The notes under the pieces are model-generated. The model was not told where the DNA came from, did not search any database, and was given only the letters and a program-made list of their open reading frames with translations. This document shows positions 4,463-21,501 of a stretch of 64,000 nucleotides of DNA, piece after piece (position 1 is the first letter of the stretch; every line of letters starts with the position of its first letter). A program made the translations under genes and the position numbers. The stretch lies in the NCBI GenBank assembly GCA_019752045.1, contig JAIEMP010000008.1, positions 72,676-136,675 on the forward strand, read 5' to 3'. Source of the DNA: Chitinophagaceae bacterium (GTDB lineage: Bacteria > Bacteroidota > Bacteroidia > Chitinophagales > Chitinophagaceae).

Positions 4463-5434
4463 TCAGCGAAAGCGAACGGCAACTGCAAAGGCGCCAAACA
4501 CTTCCATTTTCTTAATCATGCTGGCCGCTTCTCTTTGCTTAAATGTATAAACAATAGATAAGGAAGTTTTTTTTCCTGAAATAACAGCGCCTGTTTTTAT
4601 AAGGTACAAAAATGGATTGAGGGGTGAAGTATACAATCCTTTATCTGATCTCAATAATCCACCTTGTACAGTTGCATTGTAAGCCTGTACCATTAAAACC
4701 GGTTCAAGAAAAATAAACGCTTCCGTTTTATGTTGTCCTTTTTCATTTGCTTGACCCATTCGTCCGCTCCAGTAAGCGGTGTGTTCTTCAGCTTCTTTTA
4801 AACCGGCCTTTAATAAAAAACCTGCAGAGGCATTGGTAAATGTATTTCCAACAATGGCTTTTCCAACAGCATGCAGTGATACATGCGCAGGTTGGTTATG
4901 GAGCAATGAACGGTAATACTGCACTGATGCATTGATACCCACTTCGTTTTGCAACTGATACTCCCATCCGTAAATTTTATACAGCATCACCAGTTTGTGA
5001 TAACCCATTTGTATTTGTTTTCCTAAAGCAGCAGGGCCCAGTATGCCAATCACTGCATCGAACTGTAATACATCATTGTTACGGTAAATTTTTGTTTGTC
5101 CATATGATGCATACAGCCAACCTGCAAATGGTCGGTCCAATGTTTTAAGTACAGTATCTAATGAACGTCTGTTGTAGTAAGGATTAAAAATCATTTGTCC
5201 CGCTTCTGTACGGTGAATGGTTTTTAGTACACGGTCGTTTGCCGGGTTGTTTGAAAGCCAGTTAAAGCGGATAAAAAACCCATTGGAATAATAACGGTCT
5301 TTGAGTGTAAAATTATAATTATCGTTTTCTGTTATGATGGAAAGCTCTTTGTTATATACAGACGAATCCTGTGCATACAATAGTGCCGAAGTAAAAAGGA
5401 ATAAACAAAATATGAATATAGCTTTGATGCTCAT
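4463..5434 (-). CDS. Lipid A deacylase LpxR family (DUF2219) outer-membrane protein
   Basis: Signal peptide, ENDNY...DRYYSNG, GQMIFNP, DRPFAGWLY, GWEYQL motifs; C-terminal VRFR. Confidence 0.85.
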   Translation of the reverse strand: MSIKAIFIFCLFLFTSALLYAQDSSVYNKELSIITENDNYNFTLKDRYYSNGFFIRFNWLSNNPANDRVLKTIHRTEAGQMIFNPYYNRRSLDTVLKTLDRPFAGWLYASYGQTKIYRNNDVLQFDAVIGILGPAALGKQIQMGYHKLVMLYKIYGWEYQLQNEVGINASVQYYRSLLHNQPAHVSLHAVGKAIVGNTFTNASAGFLLKAGLKEAEEHTAYWSGRMGQANEKGQHKTEAFIFLEPVLMVQAYNATVQGGLLRSDKGLYTSPLNPFLYLIKTGAVISGKKTSLSIVYTFKQREAASMIKKMEVFGAFAVAVRFR

Positions 5435-5475
5435 AAACTGCAAGGATACTTAAAATTTAAAAATTGATGAAGGAA

Positions 5476-5940
5476 TTACCGCAGCAGTTCAGCAATGAGC
5501 GGCCGTTCATATCCTTTCTGCAGCAGATAATCCTGCAGCTTTCTTTTTTTGGTGAATTGATTTTTTTCTGAAGCCAGCTGTTTTGCTTTTTGTTCATACA
5601 ATTTATACAAAGTGGCTTTGTAATTTTTTTCATCAATCAGCTTCAATGCTTTTTTAATGACATATTCACTCACCTGTTTTTGTTTCAGTTCGTAACTGAT
5701 TTTTATCTTGCCCCACTGCTTCATCCTGAATCGCCCACCTGCAAACTGTATGGCAAAACGTTCTTCATTGAGATAATCTTCTTCAATCAATGCCGATAAC
5801 AATTCCTCCACTTCCACTTTACGTAAACCAAAGCCGTATAGTTTTTCTTTTACCTCGCTGTGGCAACGTTCCTGGTAAGCACAGTAATGCTTTGCTTTTT
5901 GATGCGCCTGTTCTTTGCTGAGATATTTCTGAAAGGACAT
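5476..5940 (-). CDS. recX: Regulatory protein RecX
   Basis: YCAYQERCHSEV, YLNEERFA, WGKIKI, YLLQKGYE; likely start ATG 5940. Confidence 0.92.
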   Translation of the reverse strand: MSFQKYLSKEQAHQKAKHYCAYQERCHSEVKEKLYGFGLRKVEVEELLSALIEEDYLNEERFAIQFAGGRFRMKQWGKIKISYELKQKQVSEYVIKKALKLIDEKNYKATLYKLYEQKAKQLASEKNQFTKKRKLQDYLLQKGYERPLIAELLR

Positions 5941-6018
5941 GGGTAAAAATAGAAAGAACAGTTGAAAAATTGTTAGAAGAGTGATTGTATACATTCTTTT
6001 CTCCCAATACAACGAAAG

Positions 6019-6342
6019 TTATTTTTCAATAATGTAAGCCTGATACTTTTCTAATTTATAAATTTGAGATTTGAAAGAAGGTAAGAAGGTTACAAGTTCT
6101 TCAATTTTACTGGTCAGGCTATTTAATACAACAATGGATAAGGGATATTTTTCAGTGTTTTGTTGAAACATTAAATTTTTATCAATAGTAAGTAAAATAT
6201 CAAAGTTATTGTCGACACAATAGTTCATTAACTTCCCGTTTTTTACTCCACTCAACCCCAATTCTCTAACTGTGAAAACTTCGAATTCTTCCAAATGCTT
6301 TTTCAAACGTTTGGTAATACATTCATCAAGCAAAATTTTCAT
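6019..6342 (-). CDS. DUF5615 PIN-like toxin
   Basis: MKILLDECI, LLTIDKNL; overlaps a DUF433 gene. Confidence 0.85.
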   Translation of the reverse strand: MKILLDECITKRLKKHLEEFEVFTVRELGLSGVKNGKLMNYCVDNNFDILLTIDKNLMFQQNTEKYPLSIVVLNSLTSKIEELVTFLPSFKSQIYKLEKYQAYIIEK

Positions 6343-6559
6343 TGAGAATATTTGTTGATGATTCAATTAATTTTTGGGACATTTCAAGCACTTTGATAAC
6401 CTGTTCTTTGCTAACAGCTTCAAAATCTTCAAGAAAAACTTCAATAGAATCGCCGGTCTCTAAATAATCAAAAAGGTTTTTAATGGGTACTCTTGTTCCA
6501 AAAAAAACGGGAGTTCCACCTAAAATTTCAGGGTCAATATTTATTACACGTCCATCCAT
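6326..6559 (-). CDS. DUF433 antitoxin
   Basis: IDPEILGGTPVFFGTRVP motif; upstream of and overlapping DUF5615. Confidence 0.9.
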   Translation of the reverse strand: MDGRVINIDPEILGGTPVFFGTRVPIKNLFDYLETGDSIEVFLEDFEAVSKEQVIKVLEMSQKLIESSTNILNENFA

Positions 6560-6760
6560 GACTTCAAATTTAAGCAAATTTAGCTGCTATTCAAAGTCTC
6601 AATATGTTGAGATTGTAAGCTAAAAGGCGTATATGTTGGCCATCATTGGTTATAAATTTCTGATTGTGTCCGACAAAATCAATCTTACCATCATAATGTT
6701 ATTTGCAATTATGATAGCAGGAATTGTAAATAAAAAAAGGCCATTCACAGCAGTATATTG

Positions 6761-7645
6761 TTAGTCTTTCTTTTTTATTATTGTTTTCTCCTGCTTCACA
6801 TAAAAAACAAACGGCTTACTTCTGCCTTCGTTACTGTTTTCCTGTAATACTATTCCGTTGCGGTCGAGCGTTTGCACCGTCCAGATAAATGATTTCTTCT
6901 GTTGTAGTACAGTGTCTGCAGGGTTTTGCAGAAAAGAAAAATCAAGCTGCGGTTTCCAGATGTATTGTGTAATGCCGGGCATGGCTATATCATCGAGTAA
7001 CGGTTGATTACTCCTTAACGCCTGCACAGGCGATTGGTTTTGTAATACTTCAAAAACCATAATGCGGTATTGCACGGGTTCTTTTGCAGCAGGTGCCAGC
7101 GGACTCCAGCGAAAAATTACAGCTGTTTGTGCCTGTGTGCTGTTGAGCTCTGCTTCGTGCAATGGCTGCATAAGAATGGGCAACTGATAACTCACTACAG
7201 TAAAGTTGCGGCACAGCTCTTCACTTACAGGAAAAAAATCTGTTGGTGTAACGGCACGTATGCATAACTGATACTGACCTGCAGGTAATTTACCTGTGCG
7301 TTGAATGGCTTGCTGATAACTACCCGTGAACGATAACAGTTCAGGTTGAAAAAAATCAGCCATCGTCAATACCGTTGTTCCGCTTTGTATAGTGATCACT
7401 TTAGCTGCGGCTAAATTAGTAGTAGCTGCAAGTGTTCCATCTATCGTTTTAATTTCTGTTTTTATAACAATGCGCTGATTGGCCGATCCCTGTAAGGTTG
7501 CAATAATGGTAAACAGATCTCTGCGGTAAGTCCATTCATTGATCTGTGCCGGCGGGGTATTATTTCCTGCAACCAACTGCAGCCTTACCTGTGCAGTTGC
7601 TGCAAGTTCAATCATCAATGAGAGCAATAGAAAGATTGTACGCAT
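6761..7645 (-). CDS. Secreted Ig/FN3-like protein D (TANFOR-like N-terminal module), paralogous to the N-terminus of 15012-16595
   Basis: Signal peptide ending ATA|Q; RTGKLPAGQYQLC, IFRWSP, FIWTVQ motifs. Confidence 0.7.
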   Translation of the reverse strand: MRTIFLLLSLMIELAATAQVRLQLVAGNNTPPAQINEWTYRRDLFTIIATLQGSANQRIVIKTEIKTIDGTLAATTNLAAAKVITIQSGTTVLTMADFFQPELLSFTGSYQQAIQRTGKLPAGQYQLCIRAVTPTDFFPVSEELCRNFTVVSYQLPILMQPLHEAELNSTQAQTAVIFRWSPLAPAAKEPVQYRIMVFEVLQNQSPVQALRSNQPLLDDIAMPGITQYIWKPQLDFSFLQNPADTVLQQKKSFIWTVQTLDRNGIVLQENSNEGRSKPFVFYVKQEKTIIKKKD

Positions 7646-7649
7646 ACTT

Positions 7650-9395
7650 TTATTTTGAAGTATTGAATGAATAATTAAAACCGGTCCTTAAAAAACTTTC
7701 TAAATAGCCCGGGTTGGTTAAAGGTGTTTTTTGGTTTCCGAAACGAAACAGATTGGCATTCATCATGGTTTGCCAGGTGAATTTTTTGGCCAGCTTCCAG
7801 TCAATGCTGCAGTTGGCCAGAATATTATGATTGGGCGAGAATGCATTGATCTTTTCAAAATTGTACTGCAACTGACCACGCAGTTTTAATTTCTTTTTAG
7901 CTGCAGGAAAACTGATGCCGGTGCTGAGTGTGGCAATGGTTGTTTTCAATGTATTAGGTGTAGGAAATGAAATGGGTGTTTGATTATTAAAAAATAGAAT
8001 ACTGAAATCAGGATTCACCTCTTTTTTCAAAAACACCGGTACCCAGCTAAAGAAAGCGGTATGAGTATTGTTTTTTGTTTTGGTTAAAAGAAAGGCATCA
8101 ATTTCATCATAACGGCTGTAGCTGTAGTTAAAGCTCAATGAATGCATCATGTTGGTATTTGTCCAGCTGTACGAAGGGTTAATGCTGAAATCATTCGCCA
8201 CGTTTTTTATGTTGTAAGGGCTGGTGATTGTTCCTACACTCTGAAATCCAAAATTATTATAGTTCATATTTAAACTGAATGCATCACTGAACTGTGTAAA
8301 CCAGTTAACATTACCAATAAACTGCACACTCCTTGCTGCTGTACCCGATACGTTGTTCACCCTGCGGCCAACACTGGCAATTAAATTCGACTTGTTGTTT
8401 TTCATAAAATTTAAACGGGTGTTGAGCGTCACATCAAAACGGTCGGGTTGCATAAACGGATAACCGGTTGTTTGAAATCCTGCGCCGAGATATTTTGTTC
8501 CAATACCCAGATCGAAGTTTTTACTTTTTTTACCAAGTGTAACCATGCCTGCATAATCTTTAATAGTCGAGGCTCTGGCTGTAATAAACGGTTTAAAACC
8601 TGTTGTGGAAGTATCAACCACTGCACTGTTGAGATCAGAAGTGTAATTCGATTGAGCACCTTCTGTTTTCAAGTACCAGCCTTTAGTAAAAAAAAGATTA
8701 GTGACCAAGCTTAAAGTAAATCCTTCCTGCGGACGGATGGATGTCAACTGAGGGGCAACACTGCTGGTCCTGTCTTTTCCTTTTGCAAAATTAAATGCTA
8801 CCTGGTACTTGCCTTCTTCTTCTTTACCCAACTGAAACATCCAGTGATCTCTTTGGTATGCACCGTTCACTAACGGAGGCCCGGGAGCGAAGTTGATACC
8901 CCGTTGCGATTGTCCTGTAAAAAATTTAATGCGGTACGATTTCGGCTTCAGCTCAAAGCCTGCACCAAAGGCCCCAATATCGCCGGTGCTTAAATCGCTG
9001 TACTTTAAATACTGTGTGCCCAACTGCAACTCTGCCCATTTGTATTTTGGATTGATACCAATCGTATTCATAGGATTGGTGAGGTACTGCATGAAGTTCT
9101 GATTTTTAATTCCTGCATAGGGCCCTGCAAAATTGGTAGGCAATGCAGTAAGGTTTACATTAAACGGTAAACTCCAGTTGCCAAAATTGATTGTAGGCGA
9201 AAAGTTAAACCGCACCTGGTTCCATGGTCTTCGCTGCAGATACAATGGCGGTACTGCATTGTTTGGGTTCACGTTTAACCCATAGCCTTCATACCAAACA
9301 CCCATGGTGCCGCTGATTGACGGTTTGCTTTTTTTATCCTGTGCATGCAATGATGTACAGCATAAAATGAAAACTGCTCCAAGAATTTTTTTCAT
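7650..9395 (-). CDS. Putative outer-membrane beta-barrel protein C
   Basis: Signal peptide ending LHA|Q; long run of amphipathic aromatic beta-strands; C-terminal FLRTGFNYSF strand; no Cys-rich or TM-helix regions. Confidence 0.7.
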   Translation of the reverse strand: MKKILGAVFILCCTSLHAQDKKSKPSISGTMGVWYEGYGLNVNPNNAVPPLYLQRRPWNQVRFNFSPTINFGNWSLPFNVNLTALPTNFAGPYAGIKNQNFMQYLTNPMNTIGINPKYKWAELQLGTQYLKYSDLSTGDIGAFGAGFELKPKSYRIKFFTGQSQRGINFAPGPPLVNGAYQRDHWMFQLGKEEEGKYQVAFNFAKGKDRTSSVAPQLTSIRPQEGFTLSLVTNLFFTKGWYLKTEGAQSNYTSDLNSAVVDTSTTGFKPFITARASTIKDYAGMVTLGKKSKNFDLGIGTKYLGAGFQTTGYPFMQPDRFDVTLNTRLNFMKNNKSNLIASVGRRVNNVSGTAARSVQFIGNVNWFTQFSDAFSLNMNYNNFGFQSVGTITSPYNIKNVANDFSINPSYSWTNTNMMHSLSFNYSYSRYDEIDAFLLTKTKNNTHTAFFSWVPVFLKKEVNPDFSILFFNNQTPISFPTPNTLKTTIATLSTGISFPAAKKKLKLRGQLQYNFEKINAFSPNHNILANCSIDWKLAKKFTWQTMMNANLFRFGNQKTPLTNPGYLESFLRTGFNYSFNTSK

Positions 9396-9410
9396 CAGTT
9401 GTACAGGAGT

Positions 9411-12400
9411 TTATTTTTTCTTGATTACAAATTCAAAACATTTAATCACTTCACATTCCTTGCAGTCTTTATCACGGAAGGTGAACTTCACACAAATTTT
9501 TCCTTTCAGTTCACAACAATCGATACCCGATGGCGGCGGCAGAATAAAATTCATTCCAATGTTTGTGCCGTTGGGAATGGAAATAGTTGTGCCGTTATTC
9601 CAAACCACTTCTCTCGGGTTTTGATATGCACCTGCACCGCTTCCGTTAAATGATGGAATGGTTGCTCCGCCAAACATGGTAATTTTTGGCGGTACCGATC
9701 CAATGTTTGTTGCAGATGAAACACTGGCCCAGGTAAATGGCAGATTCACACACTGCATACACGCTTTACCAAAATTATCGGTGATGGTATAGCTTACTAC
9801 ATTGGCTCTAACTTCCGTAATACTTGCAGTGCTCAGTCCGCTGATGCTGAATGTTTCTGTAAGAACAGTTGCATTGGGTATCTGCACATAATCATATTTC
9901 ACCGGTGTAGTATCTGCTTTTATTTCATAAGGGCAACAATTGGTTTCTACCGGACATTCTGTTTTAAAGCGTATAACACAACTGTCGCAAATTTTATTAC
10001 CACACCATCCATACAGTGTAACCGTGTATATACCTGTTTGATTGGGTGTAAATGTAAAGGGCGCAGTACCTGTTGTTGGTGAACCGGTTGGTGGTTGTAA
10101 TGTGTATGTTACTTTTGGCGGACAATTATTCGGATCAGGACAAATGTAATTTGCATTGATGCTGATTGGCTTTTTACATTTTACATCAATCGGTTTATCA
10201 GTAGGCTTCATACAGTTGAACGACTTTGTTACTTCATCAATCGTGTATGTTTTTTCGCCCCACTTACTTCCTTTGCAATCACATTCTTTATTGCCGCAAT
10301 CCACTTTAAATACAATTTTACAACTGTCGCAAATCTTATCGCCACACCATCCGTACAGCATCAGTGTATACGTTCCGCTTTGAGTGGGCGTAAAACTAAA
10401 CGGAGCGTTACCGGTAATAGGTCCACCGGTTGGTGGTTGTAAAGAGTAAGTCACTTTTGGCGGACACGACGTATCCTTACAAATATAATTTGCATTGATG
10501 TTGTAGGTTTGATTACACTTTAATGTGTATTCTGCTTTGCATTCTAACTTTATACCATTACCAATGGGTACATTTTTCGGGTTGCCTGTTTTTGCAGCAG
10601 GCGCCGGCGCATGTTCACCTTCTTTCAATATAATATCACCCCACTTGCTTTCTTTACAATCGCAGGTATCACATGGTAACACAACAACAGAATAAGTATT
10701 GCTCGTGTCTTTACATCCTGTTACAGGATCTGTTACAACAATGTGATATGTTCCGTTAACTGCCGGCGTATACAGTGGATTGTTTCCGTTTGTACCAACG
10801 GGGTTGCCGTTGAAATACCATTGTATCTGATAATTGGTTGCAAACGCACCGATTAATGGCTTGGGTGCATAAATAGTGAAGTTGCCTAACGAATCACGGC
10901 AGGTACAAGGTATCTTATCGCAGTAATGCGGAAACAGATCAGTGGGCGGTCTTCTGTTGATCTTGATGTTCTTACTGCTGCTGCAACCTGTTACAGGATC
11001 GGTATATGTTGCTGTATAAACTCCTGCTGTATAAACGGTGATACTTGTTGTGGAAGAACCTGTGTTCCATGTAATGTTGTTTGCATAATTGGTAACGGTT
11101 AATGTAATAGGTACACCTTCACACAAAGTAGGACTTGAAGTAATAACAGGAGGCGCAGGAATTGGATTGACCACAATCTGTAAAGAGCAGGTGTCTTTAC
11201 ATCCGTATTCATTTGTGAGAATTAAATTAAATACGGTGGATACTGAAACGCCTGCTGCATAATAACTCTGGCCAGTTCCTAACAAAGTACCATAATTACC
11301 ATTGGCATACCAATCAGATGTATAACCGGTTAAATGATTTGGACTGCTCAGCACCACATTGCCCGGTCCGCACAATTTGCTGGATGGCGCTGCTTTAATA
11401 ATTGCTTTGGGCTTTGTTACAGTTTTTACTTCTACTTTATTACTGATGCATATACAACCATTGCTGCCTGTTACAATTACACGATAGAAGCCCGGCGTGG
11501 TTGTAGTATAGTTGATGGTATTGTTTGTTCCCGGAGCTGCAACAAAATTGCCCGGTGTTGTTTCAACCTGCCATGCATAAGTGGCACCTGCAATAACCGG
11601 TCCTGCTAATGTAGCAGAACCACCCGGACAAATATATCCCGGCTGTATTGTACAACTTGTAATACCGGGTAACACATTAATAGTTGTATTCGCATTGCAG
11701 GTATTACCTAATGCATCCGTTACAGTTAATGTTACAGGTATGCCTGCACCTGCTGTATTATAAATATGTGATGTAGGAATGGTATAAGCTGTAAACCCAT
11801 CACCAAAATTCCATGCCGCTGTTACAATGGTGAACGAAGGTGATCCCACCAAACTGAAAGTTGTTTGAACACCTGTACATACCGGCGACGGATTTACCTG
11901 TATGGCCAGCGGTGCATAGGTAACTGTTTTTGTATCGGTACTTGAACAGGTTAAACCTAATGAAGGATCAGAATAATTAATGGTGAGTGTAATGGTATAG
12001 GTTGTGGGCGATGTATTGGTATAACAATGTGCAGGAGGTGTGGGCGATGTTGTTGTAACAACAGGACTGCCATCACCAAAATTCCAATTATAGGTAGCTG
12101 TTGCTGCATTACTTGTTGGTGCAATCACAGATAGATTTTCTAATACCAGACAACCATTGCAACCAAGCTTGTAATTAAATGCAGCCAATAGAGGAACTCT
12201 TACTGTTCTTGATACACAATTACCTGTACAGTTTGTTGGGTTGGGTGAAGGCGGACCAACACAGAACGTAACACAATAATCACCCGGTTGTGTGCCCGGA
12301 GGATATACATAGGTAATAGGCACACCCGAAGTACCGGGCATGGTAACCCCATTTCCAAAATTCCATGTAATAGCTGCCCCTGTTGGGTTTGGAGTGGTAC

Positions 12401-15005
12401 CTGTAAATGTAAAGGAGTTGCAGCTGTTGCGTACTACACTTGTTATTTGCGGATTATTTACATCAGGACAGCATACTTTCTTCACTGTAAAATTCAAATA
12501 CCTTGTACAACTGCCATAAGTAACAACTACACTATAATTACCATGAGTTGGCGCAGTATAGTTGGGCAAGGTTGCACCTGAAATAGGAGTTCCCGGATAA
12601 AATCCATTATACCATTGATAAGTAAATGTGCCGCTTGTTGGTCTTATCACCTGCACGCCCAATACTTCATTAGTTGCAGTACCGTTACAGGTTCCAACTC
12701 CGCATGTTAATCCACGAATAATAAATGGATCTTCAACAGTATATGTTTTAGTAAATGAGCATCCGCCTTTTGTTGCAGTTACACTATATGTTGCAGGGTA
12801 AGATGGCGGTTCTGTTGTAATAGTAATGGATGATGTGGTTTGTCCTCCCGGGCTCCACAAATAAGTAGAGCCGCTTGGTGCACCTGTTGCTGTTAATGTA
12901 ATACCGCCGGGTAAGCAAACATCTGTTCCTGATTTTGTAATGCCAATGGAAAACTTGGGATACACCATGATGCCTGTAAGTGCTGTTGCATTTCCACAAC
13001 CCGTTGTTGCATTTAATGTAACAGGTCCCCATGGTCCGGCACCGGTAGTGCCATGCCATAAGATGGTAATATTGTTGGTGCCTTGTCCTGTTGTAATTGT
13101 TCCCAAACTTGCATAAGGTGCTGCAATGCTCCATGTAATCATTTCTCCCGGAGGTAAAGTGCCGCCGGTTAAAGTATACATACCGTTTCCATCCACACAG
13201 GTATTCATGGTGCCGCTGATGCTGCCAACAGTTGCCTGTACAACATTCAACGTAACAGCTGCTGATGGACATGCAGGATAACCATTGGCCGCTAATACAA
13301 CAGAGATGGTTCCTGTTAATCCTGTCCATTGAATGCTTGCACTGTTACCATTTACTGTTGTAAGATTGCCCGGTTGAAATGTTCCTGTACCACCGGTGAT
13401 GCTCCACTCATAATGAAAACCGGCAGGAGCAGGACTGCTCATTGTATAATTATAATTTGATCCGACACATGCAGTAGTTGGTCCGTTGATTGTTCCGGGA
13501 GCTGGCGTATTAATAACGGTGACCTTCACCTGCTGCGGATTACCTGCGCCACTGTTGCAATAGGTGTTGGCAGTTTCTGTTACCTGTACAGTATACACAC
13601 CGGCATTTAAAAAAGTGGGATTAAAAGTATTTCCCGGTCCGCCGGTTAATGGTGATACGCCTCCGTTTGGTGGAAGAACAGTCCAGTTATAAGTACCTGC
13701 TGCAGGGAGTGCAGTAAGACTCGCAGCGGTTCCTTTACAAATTGTCTGATCAATGTACAGCTGCCATTTGTCGGATGGTTTGATGGTTAATGATCCACTG
13801 CTGTTACAGCAAATATGTTTATTGTCTAACTGAATACTTAATTGATACGTTCCCGGAGGAGCAAGTGCCCAGTTAATCCACACCGTATTGTTATCAGGAT
13901 AAGTGTTGAGTAAATTGTTATGATTGGTTGCGTTGGTTACATTGGTCAGAGTCCATGTATAAAACGTTCCCGGTAATACAGGTAAGCTGTAAGATGTGGT
14001 TGATGTATTACACGGACTTGTATTACCAACAATAACAGGAGTTGTTGGTATGATGGGCACCGGCACCGATGCAATACAGCCGCCGGGGCATTGCGCCTGC
14101 ACCTGTCCCTGCAGATTTCCATTACCCCAGATAATGGTTACTGTAGTGGGTGTTTGATTAAGAATAGTTCCGCCAACAGGTGGCAGCCAGGTAACACTTG
14201 CACAACCAACTACATTGTATGTTGCAGTATCTCCTGCACAAACGGTACTGACGCATTCAATTTTTAATGTGCCCGGTTTGATGGTAACTGTTTTTGTAAT
14301 TGTATCGGCACAACAGGTTTTTATAGAGGTTTGTTGTTCTCCTGTTGGCCCCTGAGCAGACACAGTTGTGAAACTGTATGCAATTAATGTAACCGTATAC
14401 GTTCCTGCTGCATTGTATGTATGTGTTGGATTGGTAACGGTGCTGAAGTTGTTACTGCCCGATGCAGGATCTCCAAAATTCCATGAGTAGGCAACACCTC
14501 CTCCAAAGGTTGTGGTATTGGTAAATGAAATGGTACTGCCTGCACAAACATTGTTTGGAGTAAATGTAAAATTGGCAACAGGTTTGTCTTTTACATTTAC
14601 CGTTAAGCAACTCGTAAACACATTGCCCGATGGATCTGTAGCAGTAAACGTTAATGTATACGCACCCAATTGCGGCCATACAACTGTTACGGAAGAAGAA
14701 GTAGTATTTGGAATAAACGTTACAGTTGACGGACCGGTTGCAGACCATAAATAACTCCAGCCCGGTAATACAATAGATGAAGTGTACGTGTATGGCTGAT
14801 CTTTACAAACAGCAATGGGTTTGCATCCACGGCCCTGGTTGCCGCCGGGATCTGCTGAATGTTCTTTATCAAAACAATCGGGTGATGTATATAAAATTTC
14901 TACCTGATTGCAGGATTGTGCAGTGAGCCTGTTAGCTGTTGCAGTAAAACAAACAGCAAGCAAAAGCATCAACGCAAATTTGGAAAAGTTGTTTAGTTGT
15001 TTCAT
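9411..15005 (-). CDS. Giant secreted PKD/Ig-repeat Cys-rich protein B (adhesin-like), 1864 aa
   Basis: Signal peptide ending LTA|Q; four W(N)FG(D/N) PKD-type motifs; Thr/Gly/Pro-rich Ig-like repeats; two ~110-aa Cys-rich repeats; Cys-rich C-terminal domain. Confidence 0.85.
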   Translation of the reverse strand: MKQLNNFSKFALMLLLAVCFTATANRLTAQSCNQVEILYTSPDCFDKEHSADPGGNQGRGCKPIAVCKDQPYTYTSSIVLPGWSYLWSATGPSTVTFIPNTTSSSVTVVWPQLGAYTLTFTATDPSGNVFTSCLTVNVKDKPVANFTFTPNNVCAGSTISFTNTTTFGGGVAYSWNFGDPASGSNNFSTVTNPTHTYNAAGTYTVTLIAYSFTTVSAQGPTGEQQTSIKTCCADTITKTVTIKPGTLKIECVSTVCAGDTATYNVVGCASVTWLPPVGGTILNQTPTTVTIIWGNGNLQGQVQAQCPGGCIASVPVPIIPTTPVIVGNTSPCNTSTTSYSLPVLPGTFYTWTLTNVTNATNHNNLLNTYPDNNTVWINWALAPPGTYQLSIQLDNKHICCNSSGSLTIKPSDKWQLYIDQTICKGTAASLTALPAAGTYNWTVLPPNGGVSPLTGGPGNTFNPTFLNAGVYTVQVTETANTYCNSGAGNPQQVKVTVINTPAPGTINGPTTACVGSNYNYTMSSPAPAGFHYEWSITGGTGTFQPGNLTTVNGNSASIQWTGLTGTISVVLAANGYPACPSAAVTLNVVQATVGSISGTMNTCVDGNGMYTLTGGTLPPGEMITWSIAAPYASLGTITTGQGTNNITILWHGTTGAGPWGPVTLNATTGCGNATALTGIMVYPKFSIGITKSGTDVCLPGGITLTATGAPSGSTYLWSPGGQTTSSITITTEPPSYPATYSVTATKGGCSFTKTYTVEDPFIIRGLTCGVGTCNGTATNEVLGVQVIRPTSGTFTYQWYNGFYPGTPISGATLPNYTAPTHGNYSVVVTYGSCTRYLNFTVKKVCCPDVNNPQITSVVRNSCNSFTFTGTTPNPTGAAITWNFGNGVTMPGTSGVPITYVYPPGTQPGDYCVTFCVGPPSPNPTNCTGNCVSRTVRVPLLAAFNYKLGCNGCLVLENLSVIAPTSNAATATYNWNFGDGSPVVTTTSPTPPAHCYTNTSPTTYTITLTINYSDPSLGLTCSSTDTKTVTYAPLAIQVNPSPVCTGVQTTFSLVGSPSFTIVTAAWNFGDGFTAYTIPTSHIYNTAGAGIPVTLTVTDALGNTCNANTTINVLPGITSCTIQPGYICPGGSATLAGPVIAGATYAWQVETTPGNFVAAPGTNNTINYTTTTPGFYRVIVTGSNGCICISNKVEVKTVTKPKAIIKAAPSSKLCGPGNVVLSSPNHLTGYTSDWYANGNYGTLLGTGQSYYAAGVSVSTVFNLILTNEYGCKDTCSLQIVVNPIPAPPVITSSPTLCEGVPITLTVTNYANNITWNTGSSTTSITVYTAGVYTATYTDPVTGCSSSKNIKINRRPPTDLFPHYCDKIPCTCRDSLGNFTIYAPKPLIGAFATNYQIQWYFNGNPVGTNGNNPLYTPAVNGTYHIVVTDPVTGCKDTSNTYSVVVLPCDTCDCKESKWGDIILKEGEHAPAPAAKTGNPKNVPIGNGIKLECKAEYTLKCNQTYNINANYICKDTSCPPKVTYSLQPPTGGPITGNAPFSFTPTQSGTYTLMLYGWCGDKICDSCKIVFKVDCGNKECDCKGSKWGEKTYTIDEVTKSFNCMKPTDKPIDVKCKKPISINANYICPDPNNCPPKVTYTLQPPTGSPTTGTAPFTFTPNQTGIYTVTLYGWCGNKICDSCVIRFKTECPVETNCCPYEIKADTTPVKYDYVQIPNATVLTETFSISGLSTASITEVRANVVSYTITDNFGKACMQCVNLPFTWASVSSATNIGSVPPKITMFGGATIPSFNGSGAGAYQNPREVVWNNGTTISIPNGTNIGMNFILPPPSGIDCCELKGKICVKFTFRDKDCKECEVIKCFEFVIKKK
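9954..10664 (-). repeat. Tandem ~110-120-aa Cys-rich repeats within protein B
   Basis: CDCK.SKWG...INANYIC...CPPKVTY.LQPPTG.P.TG.APF.FTP.Q.G.YT..LYGWCG.KICDSC...FK..C at 10296-10664 and 9954-10283. Confidence 0.9.
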
Positions 15006-15011
15006 TGCTGT

Positions 15012-16595
15012 TTATTTTAAGTCTTTAGGGTTATTATCTGCAGGTAATTTTTCGCAACCTTCTTTTTTCTTTTCATAGCACACTAATTTGCTGCAGCTTG
15101 TGCAATCGGTAAATTCAATCTTGTACCGTATACACCATCGGAACAACGCACTGCAACAGGGAACCAGTTGTGGTGTAGTGATGTTGATGTTGAGAGCTGT
15201 TTGCGGACCGTTCCATTGCAAACTGTTACTGCCATTCGTAAAGTGACCGTACGTTGCTGCATCTTTATTACAGGGTATGCAGAGATTATTTTCAGGAACC
15301 AGTTCAAAATAAACCAGTTCTGCAGTTATGCTTTTGATGGTCTTGGAAGGAGTAGTTGTAACCGTTATATTTTGATTATATGAAAGATTGTTGTTGATAT
15401 AATTAATGGGCGATGGTTTAGGAGTATTCAATACAAAATTCTTTTCATCACAAGCATCGCATCTGCACGCATCAACTTTTACGCAGCTGTCTTTCGATGC
15501 TTTCCAGAATGCATTACCCACATCTTTTATTTCGGCACCAATACAAATGTTGGATAAGTTGGGAGGAGCATTAATGGTTCCTGTTATGGTTAACTGATTA
15601 CCTGCATTGATCACTGTATTAATAGGCGGAGCAAATGTTCCGATACTTGCGCCTGCAGGTGCGCTGGATGTAACAGTAAATAAATTGAGAGTTGCAGGGC
15701 CGGGATTGGGATTGGTAATGGTATAAGAAAAAGCATACACGCCGGGTGTATTGGTGCAGGTTACTTTTATAGAATCGAGCTGAATAATATATTGTGTAAC
15801 AGCAAAAGCAGTTGGTTCACTGGTTCCATTGTTATTACCAATTGGTTTTCCATCACGGTTCAAAGCCTGCACCGTCCACATGAAATCGCATAAGTAAGGA
15901 GGTTTGCAGGGACCGGTATATAAATTACTGATGGTTGTTTGTGTAAGATTGTCTACATCTTTTGTAACCACGGGTTCATTTGCACGCATGGCAGATGCAG
16001 CATTTTGTCCCTGCATCAACTGCCATACTTTTAGACGATAGGTGACCGGTTCTTTTGGTTTGGGAACAATGGGTGTCCACCGAAATGTAACAGGAGCACT
16101 GATCTCTTTTTCCGTAAACTGTTTTTTATCTGCGGGTGCAATATTTTGTGGGGATGAATAATTGCTGACCAATGATTCTACTCTAAACTCTTTGCATACT
16201 TCCCTGCTGATTTCTTTTCGCTCTGCATTAAAGAACTGCACACATAATGTATACGTTCCTTCTTTCAGTTCTCTGCAACCGGCTAAATAAGAAAGCAGTT
16301 CCGATGTGGTGAACGTACGTACATCAAACGGATCTATTTGTTTGGCGGTGGAGTTGTTGTTGCCACAGATGATGGCACCGCCGCTTCTGATCTGTAACAC
16401 CATAAAGGGTTTCAGATCTCTTGCCTGCGGACCTTTTTGTACCGTGAGTACCAAGGCTCCGGGGCTGCTGTTCCAGCTGTCAACAGTTGCAGGCAGTGTA
16501 TTTTTCACTGTAAAGTTGACAATGTTGATCTGGTTGGGCTGGCTGCGGGCAGCAAAACAGGACAGCAGTAGCAGAAAGAAAATAATTTTCTTCAT
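15012..16595 (-). CDS. Secreted protein A: D-like Ig/FN3 module plus Cys-rich C-terminal domain shared with protein B
   Basis: Signal peptide ending ARS|Q; LKEGTYTLC, TFRWTP, FMWTVQ; C-terminal CCSALFRWCIRYKIEFTDCTSCSKLVCYE. Confidence 0.75.
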   Translation of the reverse strand: MKKIIFFLLLLSCFAARSQPNQINIVNFTVKNTLPATVDSWNSSPGALVLTVQKGPQARDLKPFMVLQIRSGGAIICGNNNSTAKQIDPFDVRTFTTSELLSYLAGCRELKEGTYTLCVQFFNAERKEISREVCKEFRVESLVSNYSSPQNIAPADKKQFTEKEISAPVTFRWTPIVPKPKEPVTYRLKVWQLMQGQNAASAMRANEPVVTKDVDNLTQTTISNLYTGPCKPPYLCDFMWTVQALNRDGKPIGNNNGTSEPTAFAVTQYIIQLDSIKVTCTNTPGVYAFSYTITNPNPGPATLNLFTVTSSAPAGASIGTFAPPINTVINAGNQLTITGTINAPPNLSNICIGAEIKDVGNAFWKASKDSCVKVDACRCDACDEKNFVLNTPKPSPINYINNNLSYNQNITVTTTPSKTIKSITAELVYFELVPENNLCIPCNKDAATYGHFTNGSNSLQWNGPQTALNINITTPQLVPCCSALFRWCIRYKIEFTDCTSCSKLVCYEKKKEGCEKLPADNNPKDLK

Positions 16596-16733
16596 TTTGA
16601 TGGTTGCTTTAATGGTTACAGCCTGTTATGCCTCCTGTTCAAAAAGCGGTGGCTTTCAGAAACAGCATTCAGCAAACAGGAAAATGCAAAATGATCTTAC
16701 TGTTATAGTTCATCAGGTGTTGAACATTCGTTA

Positions 16734-16749
16734 CGGCAGTATACTGCCG
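16734..16749. promoter_or_regulatory. Perfect 16-bp palindrome upstream of the four-gene operon
   Basis: CGGCAGTATACTGCCG, about 140 bp upstream of the protein A start codon. Confidence 0.45.
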
Positions 16750-16982
16750 CTTTAACTGTTGTTCTGTATGGTATATACAGGCCAACAGGAAATTGTTACT
16801 GAAAAATTCAATATTATTTTTAAAGGAGAGTAGTGGATAGCAAGGAACAGCAGTTGCTTTGGGCAAGTATTTCCTCATGAAGCCGGGTTAATGGTACTCC
16901 AAAATACAATTTTGTTGCTGGAGTAGCAATATTATCGTGGTATTTTAAAGAATATGGAGTTAGAAATGGTTTAACTAAAAAC

Positions 16983-17009
16983 AAAAAGTTGCCCTTGAGG
17001 CAACTTTTT
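16983..17009 (-). terminator. Rho-independent terminator of hsp20 (bidirectional shape)
   Basis: aaaaagttgcc-cttga-ggcaacttttt. Confidence 0.8.
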
Positions 17010-17030
17010 AAAAACCAATGCATAGTTGTA

Positions 17031-17483
17031 TTATGAAATCTGGATTCGGCGTACCGGCTTTTGTTTGGCTTCTTCTTTTTTAGGAATCAGCAGGTGCAGC
17101 AATCCGTTTTCATACTTTGCCACAATCTTATCTATATCCATCACTTCTTTCTGCAATGTAAATGTTCTTTGAAAAGACTGATAGCTGAATTCTTTACGGG
17201 AGTATCGTTCGTTTTCGTTGTCTTCTTTTTGATCACTTCTTTCTGAGCTGATCAACAAAGTGTTTCCGTTTAACTCAACTTTAAAATCGTTCTTGGTCAT
17301 ACCCGGAGCGGCTACCTCCACTTCATAATTTTCAGGAGTTTCTTTAATGTTTACCGCAGGGATAGTGGTATCTGTATCGGAAAAATTAGATGTTTTCCAG
17401 TTAAACAGATCCCTGTTAAAGAAATCATCAAAAAGCATTGGTAAGGGATTCAGGATGTTTCCATTTCTTTTTACCAGTGTCAT
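17031..17483 (-). CDS. Hsp20/alpha-crystallin small heat-shock protein
   Basis: PAVNIKET, AAPG, EFSYQSFQRTF, AKYENGLL motifs. Confidence 0.95.
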   Translation of the reverse strand: MTLVKRNGNILNPLPMLFDDFFNRDLFNWKTSNFSDTDTTIPAVNIKETPENYEVEVAAPGMTKNDFKVELNGNTLLISSERSDQKEDNENERYSRKEFSYQSFQRTFTLQKEVMDIDKIVAKYENGLLHLLIPKKEEAKQKPVRRIQIS

Positions 17484-17531
17484 AACAACCTCCTTTTAAT
17501 TGGTGAACAATAAAAATTTTACAACAAAAAA

Positions 17532-17546
17532 TCAACTACTGTGCCA
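17532..17546 (-). promoter_or_regulatory. Sigma-54-type -24/-12 promoter of hsp20
   Basis: Minus strand TGGCACAGTAGTTGA versus consensus TGGCACG-N4-TTGC; upstream palindrome ctgaaaa-a-ttttcag at 17591-17605 is a possible activator site. Confidence 0.6.
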
Positions 17547-17693
17547 TAGGAAATTTAGCAGGAAGCAGGATGAAAATTTGTCTCAGGTTGCTGAAAAATT
17601 TTCAGATAAAAGTCAAAATTTCTTATTGATTTTTTCAGGAAGGGGTGGAAATGTGCTCTTCAAAGTCTCCAGACAACCGGTTAGGGTGTTGCC

Positions 17694-18083
17694 TTATCCC
17701 AGCACATTTAATTTGTCTATTCTGTCGAAATGTTTCTTGTTTAACGTAGCAAAAGGTATGTCGTAGAGGAGGGCTGTCGCTGCAATAAACAAGTCGGCAA
17801 TGTCAATCTGTTTCCTTTTCCGTTTTAATTCGTTATTGATGTCAACAGCCACATCAACAGTATTTTCGTCAAAAGGAATGATCGTTATTTTTTGCAGAAC
17901 GCTGTCCCAGAATGTCAGTTGAGAAGGAGTAGCACCGGAGTATATTTCATATTTGGTTATTGCAGAAATCGCAAATTCGTATCCTTGTCGAACAAGTGCA
18001 ATCCAAACAGAATTGGCTTTGTCTGTTTTGCGGTAAAAATCAATAAGAATGGAGCTGTCAATCAATATTAATTTGTCCGCCAT
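17694..18083 (-). CDS. VapC-family PIN-domain toxin
   Basis: LIDSSILIDF, SAITKYEI, DIADLFIAATA, ATLNKKHF. Confidence 0.9.
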   Translation of the reverse strand: MADKLILIDSSILIDFYRKTDKANSVWIALVRQGYEFAISAITKYEIYSGATPSQLTFWDSVLQKITIIPFDENTVDVAVDINNELKRKRKQIDIADLFIAATALLYDIPFATLNKKHFDRIDKLNVLG

Positions 18084-18962: not shown

Positions 18963-18970
18963 TACTTTTG
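18963..18970 (+). promoter_or_regulatory. Bacteroidota -7 promoter element
   Basis: TACTTTTG (TAnnTTTG) 18 nt upstream of ATG 18989. Confidence 0.6.
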
Positions 18971-18988
18971 CCCAAAGCAAATCCCTTC

Positions 18989-20715: not shown

Positions 20716-21501
20716 TTATTGAATGATAACAGACTCCGGCAGCATTTTTAAAAACAACATCGCTTCTTCGTAATTCAGTTGATCATATTCCACGCCAAGC
20801 AGACGAATATGTTTGTAATAAGTTTGATGCAGACTGTAGTAATGTTTTTCTGATTGCACAAACCAGGCTTTTTCTCCCAGTTTTTGTGCAAGGAACCATT
20901 TTTCCAGTAGTCTTCCTGTTCTGCCATTGCCATCTTCAAAGGGATGAATTTTAATAAAAACCAAATGCAGCATAGAAGCAAAAAAGAATATTTCTTCAAA
21001 ACTTAAACGGACTGAAAGCAATGTTTCAATATCTGCATGAAGCTTTTGCATTTCAGTATTTAACTGATCAGGAGCAGCCGCAACGTATTCAATTTTTCCA
21101 TCCTTGGTTACAACAAACATCTTTCCTTTTCTGAAAGCTCCCTGTTGTAGCGGCTGCAAAATATTTTTCGTTAAAAGACCATGAGCCTGCAGTAAGGTTT
21201 GAGCGTTGAGTTTGTTTTGCTGTGCAAACAAATAGGCATCATAGAGATCGTCAATCTTCTTTGTATAATCTGGCTGATAATGTACACCCAGCCTTTTATG
21301 TTTGATAAACGAATCAAGGTCTATCTCTTCACCTTCAATTTTGGATGAAAACACAGCAGAAACAGAAGTATAAAAACTAAAATTTTCAATACTGAGTTCA
21401 CTATCCTGTAATGCTTCAAATCGTTGTTGCAGCAACGGATCAAACTCAATTATGTATTGAGGCAGTAAACTGATTGGTAGTATTTGAAGAGGTTCTGTCA
21501 T
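20716..21501 (-). CDS. Fic-domain protein (class II, intrinsic inhibitory motif)
   Basis: Active-site HPFEDGNGRTGR; N-terminal SSKIEG matches (S/T)xxxE(G/N). Confidence 0.92.
   Translation of the reverse strand: MTEPLQILPISLLPQYIIEFDPLLQQRFEALQDSELSIENFSFYTSVSAVFSSKIEGEEIDLDSFIKHKRLGVHYQPDYTKKIDDLYDAYLFAQQNKLNAQTLLQAHGLLTKNILQPLQQGAFRKGKMFVVTKDGKIEYVAAAPDQLNTEMQKLHADIETLLSVRLSFEEIFFFASMLHLVFIKIHPFEDGNGRTGRLLEKWFLAQKLGEKAWFVQSEKHYYSLHQTYYKHIRLLGVEYDQLNYEEAMLFLKMLPESVIIQ

Follow-up and report, generated by a model that had tools for sequence, protein, structure and literature searches.

TANFOR is the N-terminal domain of a class of secreted polymorphic toxins of Bacteroidetes, whose export route is not known (Jana, Salomon & Bosis 2020, PMC7073777; TIGR02542). 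Its relatives bear nuclease and anti-eukaryotic toxin domains, the T9SS is found in >95% of the genomes with TANFOR, and SprB repeats and Por_Secre_tail are enriched near TANFOR genes (PMC7073777). In a table of the same publication, several of these toxins have an unannotated SPI protein of 548-593 aa encoded just upstream (PMC7073777). In SprB-SprF and PG1035-PorP, a giant Bacteroidota adhesin is encoded beside a dedicated outer-membrane barrel, its presumed anchor, and T9SS type-B cargo operons also encode accessory adaptor proteins (PMC9143113). Two-partner secretion (type Vb, TpsA/TpsB) combines a giant Sec-dependent exoprotein, carrying a recognition module of ~250 aa, with an adjacent cognate barrel. 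In the giant adhesins of the T1SS (LapA/MpIBP), a folded N-terminal retention module is held in a LapE/TolC-like pore with the stalk pointing outward.

We have analysed a stretch of 64,000 nucleotides (the window) from a freshwater Chitinophagaceae bacterium. Four co-oriented genes of its minus strand, on which all features given below lie, form a tightly spaced cassette: A (15012-16595, 527 aa), B (9411-15005, 1864 aa), C (7650-9395, 581 aa) and D (6761-7645, 294 aa). The ORF coordinates confirmed the gaps that had been described for this set, 6 nt between A and B, 15 nt between B and C and 4 nt between C and D. The signal-peptide junctions read from the sequence were FAARS/QPNQ in A, RLTA/QSCN in B, SLHA/QDKK in C and AATA/QVRL in D, and the A/S-Q junction was invariant or nearly so in the homologue alignments (A18 and Q19 in C and in D, Q19 in A). 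The reading of all four proteins, and the alignments of A, C and D, agreed with the original prediction of a Sec signal peptide with Gln at +1. This Gln is not specific to the cassette, as it follows the general "Q-rule" of Bacteroidetes (PMC5837995).

The cassette was searched for known export signals. At E<=1, A, C and D had no match in Pfam and NCBIfam except for TANFOR in D (14.9 bits), and B matched nothing beyond PKD/Ig models and had no T9SS CTD. The models of the T9SS type-A and type-B signals (TIGR04183/PF18962 and TIGR04131/PF13585), pilins, ushers and PorP/SprF found no match in A-D, and those of TPS and TonB none in the cassette proteins. The same CTD models did detect neighbouring genes of related loci, which served as positive control. 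The Cys residues in the h-regions of A and C were not conserved and hence are not part of a lipobox. The expected lack of T9SS signal, lipobox and pilin match was thus borne out, and none of A-D appears, from these profile searches, to belong to any described secretion or pilus family.

The layout was compared across 80 Chitinophagaceae loci. D lay directly 3' of C in 71/74 of them, with a gap typically between -4 and +12 nt and most commonly a 4-nt overlap, which is consistent with translational coupling. A was upstream of B in 37/37, and exactly two ORFs with a Cys domain (A and B) were present per locus wherever enough upstream DNA was available. Upstream of C in L013, L017, L018, L052 and L080, the Cys domain was unrecognisable or B was absent. 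The co-occurrence proposed for the four genes was therefore found to hold over these loci, and it supported that A-D may constitute a conserved functional module.

The AF2 model of C was all-beta (pLDDT 76.9, pTM 0.64), with ~26 strands joined by short periplasmic turns and lacking a plug domain; both the number of strands and the "empty lumen" come from a DSSP reading only. The best Foldseek matches were large outer-membrane barrels: MtrB at the top (6r2q_B, E=8e-10, TMq 0.56), then FimD/PapC, as well as TonB-dependent transporters and porins, with TM-scores of 0.43-0.56 that speak for the fold class only. The best of these structural matches (MtrB, then FimD/PapC) all house a protein in their lumen. 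No match was obtained for the C sequence in Pfam, NCBIfam or the PDB sequences, and a profile of the C family retrieved 1,453 representatives at E<=1e-3. This agreed with the earlier view of C as an outer-membrane barrel, and supported that C founds a putative, so far unannotated family of large barrels. At L091 the barrel was fused to LysM, which places its N-terminus in the periplasm.

D would be a free-standing copy of a module (N1-like at residues about 20-150, mod-like at about 153-285) that also forms the N-terminal part of A. BLASTP matched residues 95-268 of A to residues 98-285 of D (E=4e-22, 29% identity) and phmmer aligned D to A 9-268, in line with the homology between the two that had been noticed at the outset. 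D is predicted to be the partner or plug of the barrel, based on its similarity to A, its linkage to C and the existence of fusions. In two lineages (P0376 and P0454, each present in two independent assemblies) a D-like module was fused N-terminally to the barrel; P0376 contained the module at residues 7-263 (E=4e-43) followed by the barrel at 339-863, and P0454 was arranged alike. The order of the fusion, D then C, is opposite to the gene order of the window, so that read-through of adjacent genes would not explain it. We have also considered eight remote loci from Kapabacteria, Pontibacter and other Bacteroidota MAGs, with barrels 20-35% identical. In 8/8 the gene adjacent to the barrel started with a D-like module, and in the two fusion lineages, which are among the eight, the gene downstream of the fusion started with a further such module. 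Several remote systems had no free-standing D, implying that its role is not universal. What accompanies the barrel over large evolutionary distance is hence the N-terminal D-like module and not the Cys domain, as judged from these gene arrangements.

Comparison of the D-like family with TIGR02542 showed that 9/34 members match TANFOR (best E=2e-10), and the giant protein of L085 scored 39 bits across the full profile. D of the window, at 14.9 bits, stayed far below the cut-off of 67, and A had no score. The family matches indicate that the N1 half of the module is a distant TANFOR relative. The claim that the system is undescribed stood in part: the barrel matched no known family, but the N1 half is related to a published domain (PMC7073777). 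The pairing of a ~26-strand barrel with a TANFOR-related N-terminal module may well be previously undescribed. As in the cassette, TANFOR toxins are large Sec-dependent proteins with the module right after the signal peptide, followed by stalks rich in FN3/PKD, and their cargo is sometimes split onto a neighbouring gene. The SPI proteins upstream of them would fit the C family, by size and features only. The cassette differs in having no toxin or immunity domain and in its adhesin-like cargo, coupled by a dedicated Cys domain. It also includes the barrel C, whereas the TANFOR publication names no partner barrel (PMC7073777). The cassette may represent the missing export or anchoring route of this toxin class.

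A, the predicted adaptor, yielded an AF2 model with four beta-sandwich domains (pLDDT 81.6), for which Foldseek returned generic Ig/FN3/MG-like matches only. After the signal peptide, the D-like module comprises the TANFOR-related N1 domain (residues 20-140, 16176-16538), defined by homology to the N-terminal half of D, and the "mod" domain with the motif FRWTP...PVTYRLKVWQL (residues 145-268, 15792-16163), defined by BLASTP against D and present in one copy in A and in 1-6 copies among homologues. A middle beta-sandwich (residues 269-375, 15471-15791), seen in the AF2 secondary structure and in phmmer matches of this part in relatives, precedes a Cys domain with 12 invariant cysteine columns in the homologue alignment (residues 376-527, 15015-15470). 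All 664 homologues of A were annotated as hypothetical.

B is a giant, variable, adhesin-like protein. Behind its signal peptide, it consists of a PKD/Ig-like stalk (residues about 30-1440, 10686-14918) with Pfam matches to seven PKD stretches, PKD_4 and a marginal Ig_7, two Cys-rich "Bm" modules detected by jackhmmer (residues 1441-1689, 9939-10685) and a Cys domain homologous to that of A by BLASTP and jackhmmer (residues 1690-1864, 9414-9938). In other genomes a different type of protein, with DUF11, SdrD_B or DUF7507, occupied the position of B. In the homologues of B, 1-4 Bm modules preceded the Cys domain and 0-1 followed (jackhmmer).

The Cys domains of A and B matched at A 462-511 and B 1812-1864 (E=1e-4), and jackhmmer searches started from either one converged on the same 134 ORFs, so that the homology first suspected between the two C-termini is real. 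We have then correlated the distance matrices of the domains over 46 loci. The Cys domain of A co-varied with that of B (r=0.94, Mantel p=0.0005; partial correlation controlling for C, 0.94) and the N-terminus of A with C (r=0.81). The correlation was low between the Cys domain of A and C (r=0.35) and between the two halves of A (r=0.33). The length class of the Cys domain of A (150, 156 or 220 aa) also tracked the type of B, and the Kapabacteria locus encoded, in order, C, an A-like protein (D-like module and Cys domain) and a B-like protein (PKD and Cys domain). These results supported that A may act as an adaptor between C and B, as the original prediction had put forward when it placed A as a bridge between the barrel side and B. 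The co-variation of the Cys domains could also reflect joint transfer of B and the 3' half of A as one contiguous block of DNA, with no physical contact between the proteins. The same prediction had considered the Cys domain a targeting or polymerisation signal. A role in targeting was not supported, since in most remote systems the giant protein had no such domain and, of 42 homologues of B, 23 ended in it and 19 had a Bm module behind it. The domain is therefore unlikely to be a targeting signal and would more probably couple A to B.

The likeness to chaperone-usher or two-partner systems that had been proposed turned out to be an analogy only, as no defining feature of either family was detected with the Pfam/NCBIfam models. 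The cassette shares with two-partner secretion the general scheme described above, and its POTRA domains have a parallel in the D-C and LysM-C fusions, as periplasmic N-terminal additions to a barrel. Unlike that system, it gave no match to TPS (Haemagg_act), ShlB/Omp85 or POTRA, C has ~26 strands versus 16 in TpsB, and the D-like module is made of two beta-sandwiches instead of the beta-helix of TPS. In strand number C is comparable to MtrB-MtrA (26), LptD-LptE (26) and the FimD/PapC ushers (24). By their size, the Ig-like beta-sandwich partners could be lodged in the lumen of such a barrel or pass along it, and the partner gene is adjacent, as there. Yet C has no sequence or profile similarity to MtrB, LptD or ushers, no haems and no LptD jellyroll, and the cassette has no usher N- or C-terminal domains, plug insert or PapD-like chaperone. 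LapA/MpIBP would be close in concept, with an N-terminal module tethering a giant stalk adhesin in an outer-membrane channel, but have no Sec signal. They depend on an RTX/T1SS signal at the C-terminus together with a TolC-type channel, neither of which is evident in the cassette.

The reading that we prefer, at about even chances, is that the cassette is dedicated to docking a surface adhesin at the outer membrane, and possibly to exporting it, and is as such a candidate new system; its evidence base is computational throughout. A, B, C and D would enter the periplasm via Sec and signal peptidase I, as read from their sequences. C would insert in the outer membrane, where its own loops would not suffice to close so wide a lumen, so that a D-like module presumably fills or gates it. 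D, made in step with C, may serve as plug, gate or periplasmic receptor. A would dock on C by its N-terminal D-like module, with the Cys domain at the far end, as suggested by co-variation and fusions. The variable PKD/Ig stalk of B would join A through the paired homologous Cys domains, possibly by disulfide bonds, a step suggested by the co-variation and by the comparison of split with fused architectures: A and B together would be the counterpart of the single giants of distant systems, where the module is directly on the stalk. B, or the A-B pair, might then reach the surface via C, either as folded Ig-like domains passing singly as in ushers or as an unfolded chain. Against this reading, B lacks a D-like module of its own. 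A further difficulty is how so large a protein (1,864 aa), bearing a disulfide-rich domain, would cross the outer membrane, and what would power the passage.

That difficulty would be solved if A, B and the D-like giants were T9SS cargo with an unrecognised signal and C only a surface anchor binding the D-like module, much as type-B CTD proteins such as SprB are bound by PorP/SprF-like barrels, since the T9SS exports folded multidomain proteins. We consider this rather unlikely, although an involvement of the T9SS is plausible from the T9SS-CTD genes that are often near remote loci (in L088, L089 and L090 as the next gene upstream of the barrel, in L084, L085 and L091 nearby) and from the association of TANFOR genes with the T9SS, SprB repeats and Por_Secre_tail (PMC7073777). 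SprB-SprF and PG1035-PorP would also be the nearest Bacteroidota precedent, with adaptor proteins in type-B operons as a further likeness (PMC9143113). However, the CTD models that detected those neighbours missed A, B, the variants of B and the remote giants at E<=0.01-1, and the cassette has no TIGR04131/PF13585 as type-B cargo does. The conserved recognition element is N-terminal, while T9SS signals are C-terminal, and the homologues of B have no constant C-terminal element. C is also dissimilar to PorP/SprF and, at ~26 strands, about twice as large.

Confinement of B to the cell envelope is improbable in our view. The barrel would in that case tether periplasmic or vesicle-associated giants, or the genes would merely be co-inherited without forming one machine. 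The surface exposure of B is a prediction, and the LysM and D-like parts fused to the N-terminus of the barrel should lie in the periplasm; against this, stalk arrays of PKD, DUF11 and SdrD_B are typical of extracellular proteins, the toxin domains of TANFOR relatives must leave the cell, and both the gene fusions and the strength of the co-variation favour one machine. Nutrient capture or uptake, with C as a large channel fed by substrate-binding A, B and D under SusCD-like, glycan-sensing two-component control, seems very improbable. PKD/Ig arrays do occur in glycan-binding surface proteins, a few homologues of A had faint precomputed matches to SusE, fn3 or cadherin-like domains, and a two-component pair is encoded beside many of the loci (see below). 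But the cassette contains no TonB plug, SusD-like protein or lipoprotein, and no hydrolase or inner-membrane transporter was found in or beside it at the 80 loci. B is swapped among genomes like an adhesin or antigen, and the relatives of the D-like module are giant stalk proteins and toxin-delivery proteins (PMC7073777).

In 13/27 Chitinophagaceae loci, and also in the remote L090, the genes directly upstream encoded a Reg_prop/Y_Y_Y sensor kinase and a LytTR regulator, and such Reg_prop/His_kinase sensor and LytTR pairs probably control expression of the cassette in many relatives. In the window, a terminator-like hairpin (17010-16982) closes the upstream Hsp20 unit; it is strong, and no comparable hairpin was found inside A-D. 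The 386-nt intergenic region that follows (16596-16981) is the presumed site of the promoter and 5' UTR of an A-D operon. A contig from a run flagged "RNA?" was 100% identical to 16581-16748.

The cassette consists of four minus-strand ORFs arranged head to tail: gene A (15012-16595, 527 aa), encoding a putative adaptor; gene B (9411-15005, 1864 aa), a giant adhesin-like protein; gene C (7650-9395, 581 aa), a predicted barrel; and gene D (6761-7645, 294 aa). The A-B, B-C and C-D gaps are 6, 15 and 4 nt, respectively. A strong terminator-like hairpin (17010-16982) closes the Hsp20 gene upstream of A, a spacer of 386 nt lies 5' of A, and no comparable hairpin was found within A-D. Thus, a single operon is the natural reading. 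A scan for the sigma-70 consensus, which is uninformative for Bacteroidota, returned 17 sites against 28.5 expected. In runs presumed to be RNA, all four genes were covered by sparse, low-depth contigs of 100% identity; one such contig bridged the A/B junction, and part of C was covered in one true RNA-Seq run. This would be weakly compatible with transcription and co-transcription of the cassette, given that DNA carry-over is possible.

By inspection, each of the four products starts with an n-h-c signal peptide ending in Ala/Ser|Gln, and alignments of the homologues show little or no variation at this junction. The cysteines that A and C have in their h-regions are not retained by homologues, which argues for processing of A-D by signal peptidase I and against a lipoprotein nature. 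All four proteins therefore read as Sec/SPI substrates, and the conserved junction upholds the original prediction of Sec signals cleaved before Gln and of no lipobox. Gln at +1 corresponds to the general Q-rule of Bacteroidetes (PMC5837995).

The structural model of A (pLDDT 81.6) comprises four beta-sandwich domains, namely N1 (residues 20-140), "mod" (145-268), a middle domain (269-375) and a Cys-rich C-terminal domain, hereafter the Cys domain (376-527). D is composed of an N1-like and a mod-like domain, and the N-terminal half of A is homologous to the entire D (BLASTP E=4e-22; also phmmer); we refer to this unit as the D-like module. B contains a PKD/Ig stalk, two Cys-rich modules (Bm, residues 1441-1689) and a Cys domain. 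The last ~150 residues of A are homologous to the last ~175 of B (E=1e-4), and jackhmmer searches seeded with the Cys domain of either protein converged on the same 134 ORFs. Hence, both paralogies that had been proposed (A N-terminus with D, A C-terminus with that of B) were recovered, and the observation of a four-gene unit was confirmed as to its ORFs, gaps, signal peptides and homologies. The Cys domain has 12 invariant cysteines in the A homologues. In the window, the two Cys domains (9414-9938 and 15015-15470) display two CxxC pairs, a CC pair and a CxCxxC or CC start, a pattern that could point to disulfide bonding or to the binding of metal. With 21 cysteines, an odd number, mature A may have one left over for an intermolecular bond. 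Foldseek searches with A returned only generic Ig/FN3/macroglobulin arrays and no functional lead.

The model of C was all-beta (pLDDT 76.9, pTM 0.64). Counting DSSP strands, with an even number and short periplasmic turns required, suggested about 26 strands and no plug-sized insert. The top Foldseek match was MtrB (6r2q_B; E=8e-10, TMq 0.56, 9% identity), followed by the FimD/PapC ushers and then by TonB-dependent transporters and porins. Model and fold matches agree with the earlier impression that C looks like an outer-membrane barrel; by fold class they place C among the very large barrels of the outer membrane, and the model shows no plug of its own. To our knowledge, the very large outer-membrane barrels of known structure all house a partner protein or a plug.

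We have then investigated the conservation of the cassette. Scanning with a profile, at one genome per species, identified 179 relatives of C, and all the 80 that were retrieved belonged to Chitinophagaceae or to unclassified Bacteroidota MAGs. D was found directly 3' of C in 71 of 74 loci, most commonly with a 4-nt overlap, and A was upstream of B in every locus with a complete B (37/37). This supported the claim that homologues of the four genes co-occur. A sensor of the Reg_prop/His_kinase type and a LytTR regulator were directly upstream of A in 13 of 27 loci; the same pair (Reg_prop/Y_Y_Y His_kinase plus LytTR) occupies this position in the related loci L001, L002 and L003 and in L090, one of the remote loci with divergent barrels. 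No homologue of the sensor or regulator was found anywhere in the 64-kb window, where an Hsp20 and a PIN gene hold the position. The MAG JAEUVU01 carries two complete cassettes (L031 and L071), each with its own sensor and regulator, which differ in B type (1,397 and 1,821 aa) and in the number of A repeats.

Iterated HMMs detected exactly two Cys-domain ORFs, A and B, per locus with enough upstream DNA, and no further one either in the 64-kb window or in ~1.4 Mb of flanking sequence. Five loci break this pattern (L013, L017, L018, L052 and L080), in that no Cys domain could be recognised in the gene just upstream of C; in L080 the ORF immediately 5' of C is A-like, has "mod" repeats at its end and is not accompanied by a B. 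Between genomes, A holds 1-6 "mod" copies and B falls into size classes of ~1,040, ~1,400 and 1,810-2,100 aa, with a stalk made of PKD or of DUF11/SdrD_B/DUF7507 domains. The original prediction had viewed the Cys domain as a targeting or polymerisation signal. Of 42 B homologues, 23 end with this domain and the other 19 continue for ~80-130 more residues, mostly one more Bm module. Since the domain is not strictly C-terminal, and is also missing from most of the giant proteins of remote loci, its role as a C-terminal sorting signal was rejected as the main reading.

A different role is suggested by the co-variation of A with its neighbors, for which we have compared pairwise distance matrices from 46 loci (Mantel p=0.0005). 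The N-terminus of A correlated with C (r=0.81), and the Cys domain of A with that of B (r=0.94, unchanged at 0.94 when controlling for C). The correlation was far lower between the Cys domain of A and C (r=0.35) and between the two ends of A itself (r=0.33). Moreover, the A Cys domain occurs in length classes of 150, 156 and 220 aa, which go with the B type. At the sequence level, A thus appears to be an evolutionary chimera, as expected of an adaptor: the exchanged unit runs from mid-A to the end of B, and the docking half of A stays with C. The pattern strongly supports, though does not prove, a specific pairing of the A and B Cys domains, as physical linkage alone could give part of it; we strongly infer that these domains form a matched pair.

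An exhaustive profile search extended the C family to 1,453 representatives at E<=1e-3 (970 at E<=1e-10), all unnamed, reaching Kapabacteria and Ignavibacteria MAGs and Pontibacter. Family matches of these representatives were sporadic, weak and of generic outer-membrane-protein type. In all eight remote loci examined, a barrel-adjacent gene begins with a D-like module and mostly encodes a giant protein (~1,360-2,830 aa). Two representative proteins, each found in two independent assemblies, are natural fusions: P0376 (881 aa) joins a D-like module (residues 7-263, E=4e-43) to a barrel (339-863), and P0454 has the same build. The order in these fusions is D-C, the reverse of the gene order in the window, and therefore they are not read-through products of adjacent genes; in these lineages, the D-like-module gene is one downstream of the fusion. 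Based on the remote pairing and the fusions, a barrel plus an N-terminal D-like module is the invariant across the whole range. In a Kapabacteria locus, C is followed by an A-like gene (D-like module plus Cys domain) and a B-like gene (PKD plus Cys domain). Cys domains occur only where the module and the stalk are separate polypeptides, and A and B together would be the equivalent of what other systems have as one giant protein.

One C-family barrel, P0504 (L091, 10001-12601), carries N-terminal LysM (peptidoglycan-binding) domains, which would fit a periplasmic barrel N-terminus and recalls the periplasmic LysM domain of the intimin-type inverse autotransporters. The giants of L090 (11707-19011) and L094 (11764-20256) contain long SMC-like coiled coils (weak TIGR02168/02169 matches) and share a conserved beta-rich C-terminal region of ~1,000 aa. 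In six remote loci (L088, 16452-18617; L089, 12525-14711; L090, 19044-20969; L091, 16785-18806; L092, 10617-12800; L094, 20265-21725), the giant with the D-like module is followed by a member of a third homologous family, of ~640-730 aa and with faint fn3 similarity. This family has no member in the window cassette and might represent an additional part of the ancestral system.

We have searched the four proteins against known families and systems. At E<=1, Pfam and NCBIfam gave no match for A, C and D, except for TANFOR (TIGR02542) in D (14.9 bits, E=0.019, compared with a curated cut-off of 67 bits), and B matched only PKD/Ig. Together with PHROGs, these databases provided nothing usable for A, C or D; neither sequence nor profile searches of the PDB, run with C and with the C and D-like alignments, gave a match, and literature searches retrieved no description of the barrel family or the cassette, TANFOR being the sole link. 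A predicted outcome was that TIGR04183, TIGR04131 and the type V pilin models would not match any of the four proteins, and this was the case. The type-A CTD (TIGR04183/PF18962) was not detected at E<=1 in A-D, and was absent too from five B variants and the remote giants, those of L090 and L094 included; the same model does detect neighboring genes in L084, L088, L089, L090 and L091. Likewise, the type-B CTD (TIGR04131/PF13585 CHU_C) had no match in A-D, B showing a marginal mid-protein match to the "CHU_C-associated" Ig_7 (27.5 bits), and CHU_C was detected in an L085 neighbor gene. None of the B size classes has a T9SS CTD.

As for C, it had no NCBIfam match, and C and 30 homologues had no Pfam match at E<=1 except a weak DUF481 in three; the lack of any PorP_SprF match ruled out a PorP/SprF identity. 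A TonB-dependent transporter or porin was discarded because C lacks Plug and TonB_dep_Rec matches and resembles these proteins only in lower-ranked fold matches; among 74 remote relatives of C, sporadic weak matches were to OMP_b-brl (4), DUF2490 (3), Porin_4 (1) and BBP2_2 (1). The MtrB/PioB similarity is likewise of fold only, there being no sequence or profile match and no CxxCH-rich cytochrome gene in the cassette. Type V (FimA/Mfa) pili were set aside in view of the missing lipobox, the absence of pilin family matches and the Ig/FN3/MG-only matches of the A model. The module had also been likened to chaperone-usher and two-partner systems, and the defining features of neither were found: there was no usher or PapD match in Pfam/NCBIfam, the likeness of C to FimD/PapC being at the fold level only (TMq 0.36-0.45), and no TPS, Omp85/ShlB or POTRA match, with C having ~26 strands. 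One D-like family member gave a chance-level match to a "fimbrial assembly chaperone" (E=0.079). None of the four components falls within a characterised secretion, pilus or porin family. JGI annotates the D homologue P0124 as a "predicted phage tail protein", which looks like a misannotation; a phage origin was rejected, with no PHROGs or context support for it and a chromosomal, single-copy locus that has recX after D in 51 of 64 loci.

In A, D and all remote giants, the D-like module begins near residue 20, right after the signal peptide; TANFOR likewise directly follows the signal peptide of large secreted proteins. TIGR02542 did not match A, but it matched 9 of 34 D-like family members (best E=2e-10), and in the L085 giant it aligned over profile positions 7-144 of 145 with 39.1 bits. 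This indicates that the N1 half of the D-like module is probably a distant TANFOR relative, although it falls below the curated threshold for membership. In one class of polymorphic toxins from Bacteroidetes, TANFOR forms the N-terminal domain (Jana, Salomon and Bosis, PMC7073777); ~87% of these proteins have predicted Sec signals, and some have the toxin split onto the next gene. These toxins have a C-terminal toxin domain and a downstream immunity gene. In contrast, A, B and D gave no Pfam/NCBIfam match to a toxin or an immunity domain, and B is directly followed by C and D. The export route of TANFOR toxins is unknown, T9SS having been merely speculated (PMC7073777), and the domain-enrichment method of that study is blind to any partner without a domain model. 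Its Supplemental Data 1 lists unannotated SPI proteins directly upstream of TANFOR toxins: WP_044218632.1 of 581 aa in C. pinensis, 20 nt upstream, WP_149837919.1 and WP_149837613.1 of 574 and 593 aa in Chitinophaga sp. BN140078, and WP_046825218.1 of 548 aa in T. forsythia. These resemble the C family in size and features only and constitute a lead.

That C and the D-like modules form one complex is strongly suggested by their adjacency, coupling and fusions and by their co-variation, across a wide evolutionary range. D would plug or gate C, or serve as a POTRA-like periplasmic receptor; B would cross through C; and A would dock via its own D-like module, keeping B at the surface. The main rival is that T9SS does the translocation and C is merely a new kind of anchor. 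For this there is the SprB-SprF precedent (PMC9143113), and T9SS substrates often adjoin the remote loci; however, no CTD of any kind was found, and the conserved module is N-terminal. If T9SS were the translocator, the barrel would still be a new class of cargo anchor, one reading an N-terminal and not a C-terminal domain. Less likely, the cassette would be a nutrient-uptake apparatus or a structural complex not located at the surface.

A further-reaching possibility, which falls somewhat short of probable, is that the C-family barrel and the N-terminal TANFOR-like module constitute an unrecognised, T9SS-independent outer-membrane secretion/anchoring pathway, widespread in Bacteroidota and relatives, which displays or releases giant adhesins and is the missing export route of TANFOR toxins. 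The Chitinophagaceae cassette would be its modular version, with A and a swappable B joined by a dedicated Cys-domain pair. The original interpretation of an export system was partly supported and sharpened, the key being the N-terminal TANFOR-like module and not the Cys domain. Large surface proteins of Bacteroidota are thought to depend mainly on T9SS, lipoprotein export and type V pili. An unannotated barrel family (>1,400 clusters) always paired with one N-terminal module on giants would add an export route or anchoring principle, and how TANFOR polymorphic toxins exit the cell would become directly testable. The A-B Cys-domain pair, exchanged between genomes as a unit, would be a natural plug-in for adhesin swapping. 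All this evidence is computational, and the cassette is a candidate new system.

The cassette is flanked by housekeeping or small mobile-type genes. On the D side, overlapping minus-strand ORFs for DUF433 (83 aa) and DUF5615 (115 aa) proteins (6019-6577), resembling a toxin-antitoxin pair, separate D from recX (5476-6012); as recX directly follows D in most relatives, the pair appears to be a small insertion. Beyond is an LpxR-like outer-membrane lipid A deacylase gene (4463-5443). On the A side are the Hsp20 and PIN-domain genes (within 16596-18083), a B12-binding radical-SAM/DUF4080 protein (18968-20659) and a Fic/DOC-family protein (20716-21501). In the flanks, recA, bipA and others are located further out. 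The Fic/DOC, LpxR-like and radical-SAM/DUF4080 genes look unrelated to the cassette. The best genome match was the Chitinophagaceae MAG JALHRP010000013.1 (99% identity), the closest named A homologue was from Lacibacter, and the sequence recurs in aquatic, drinking-water and biofilm metagenomes.
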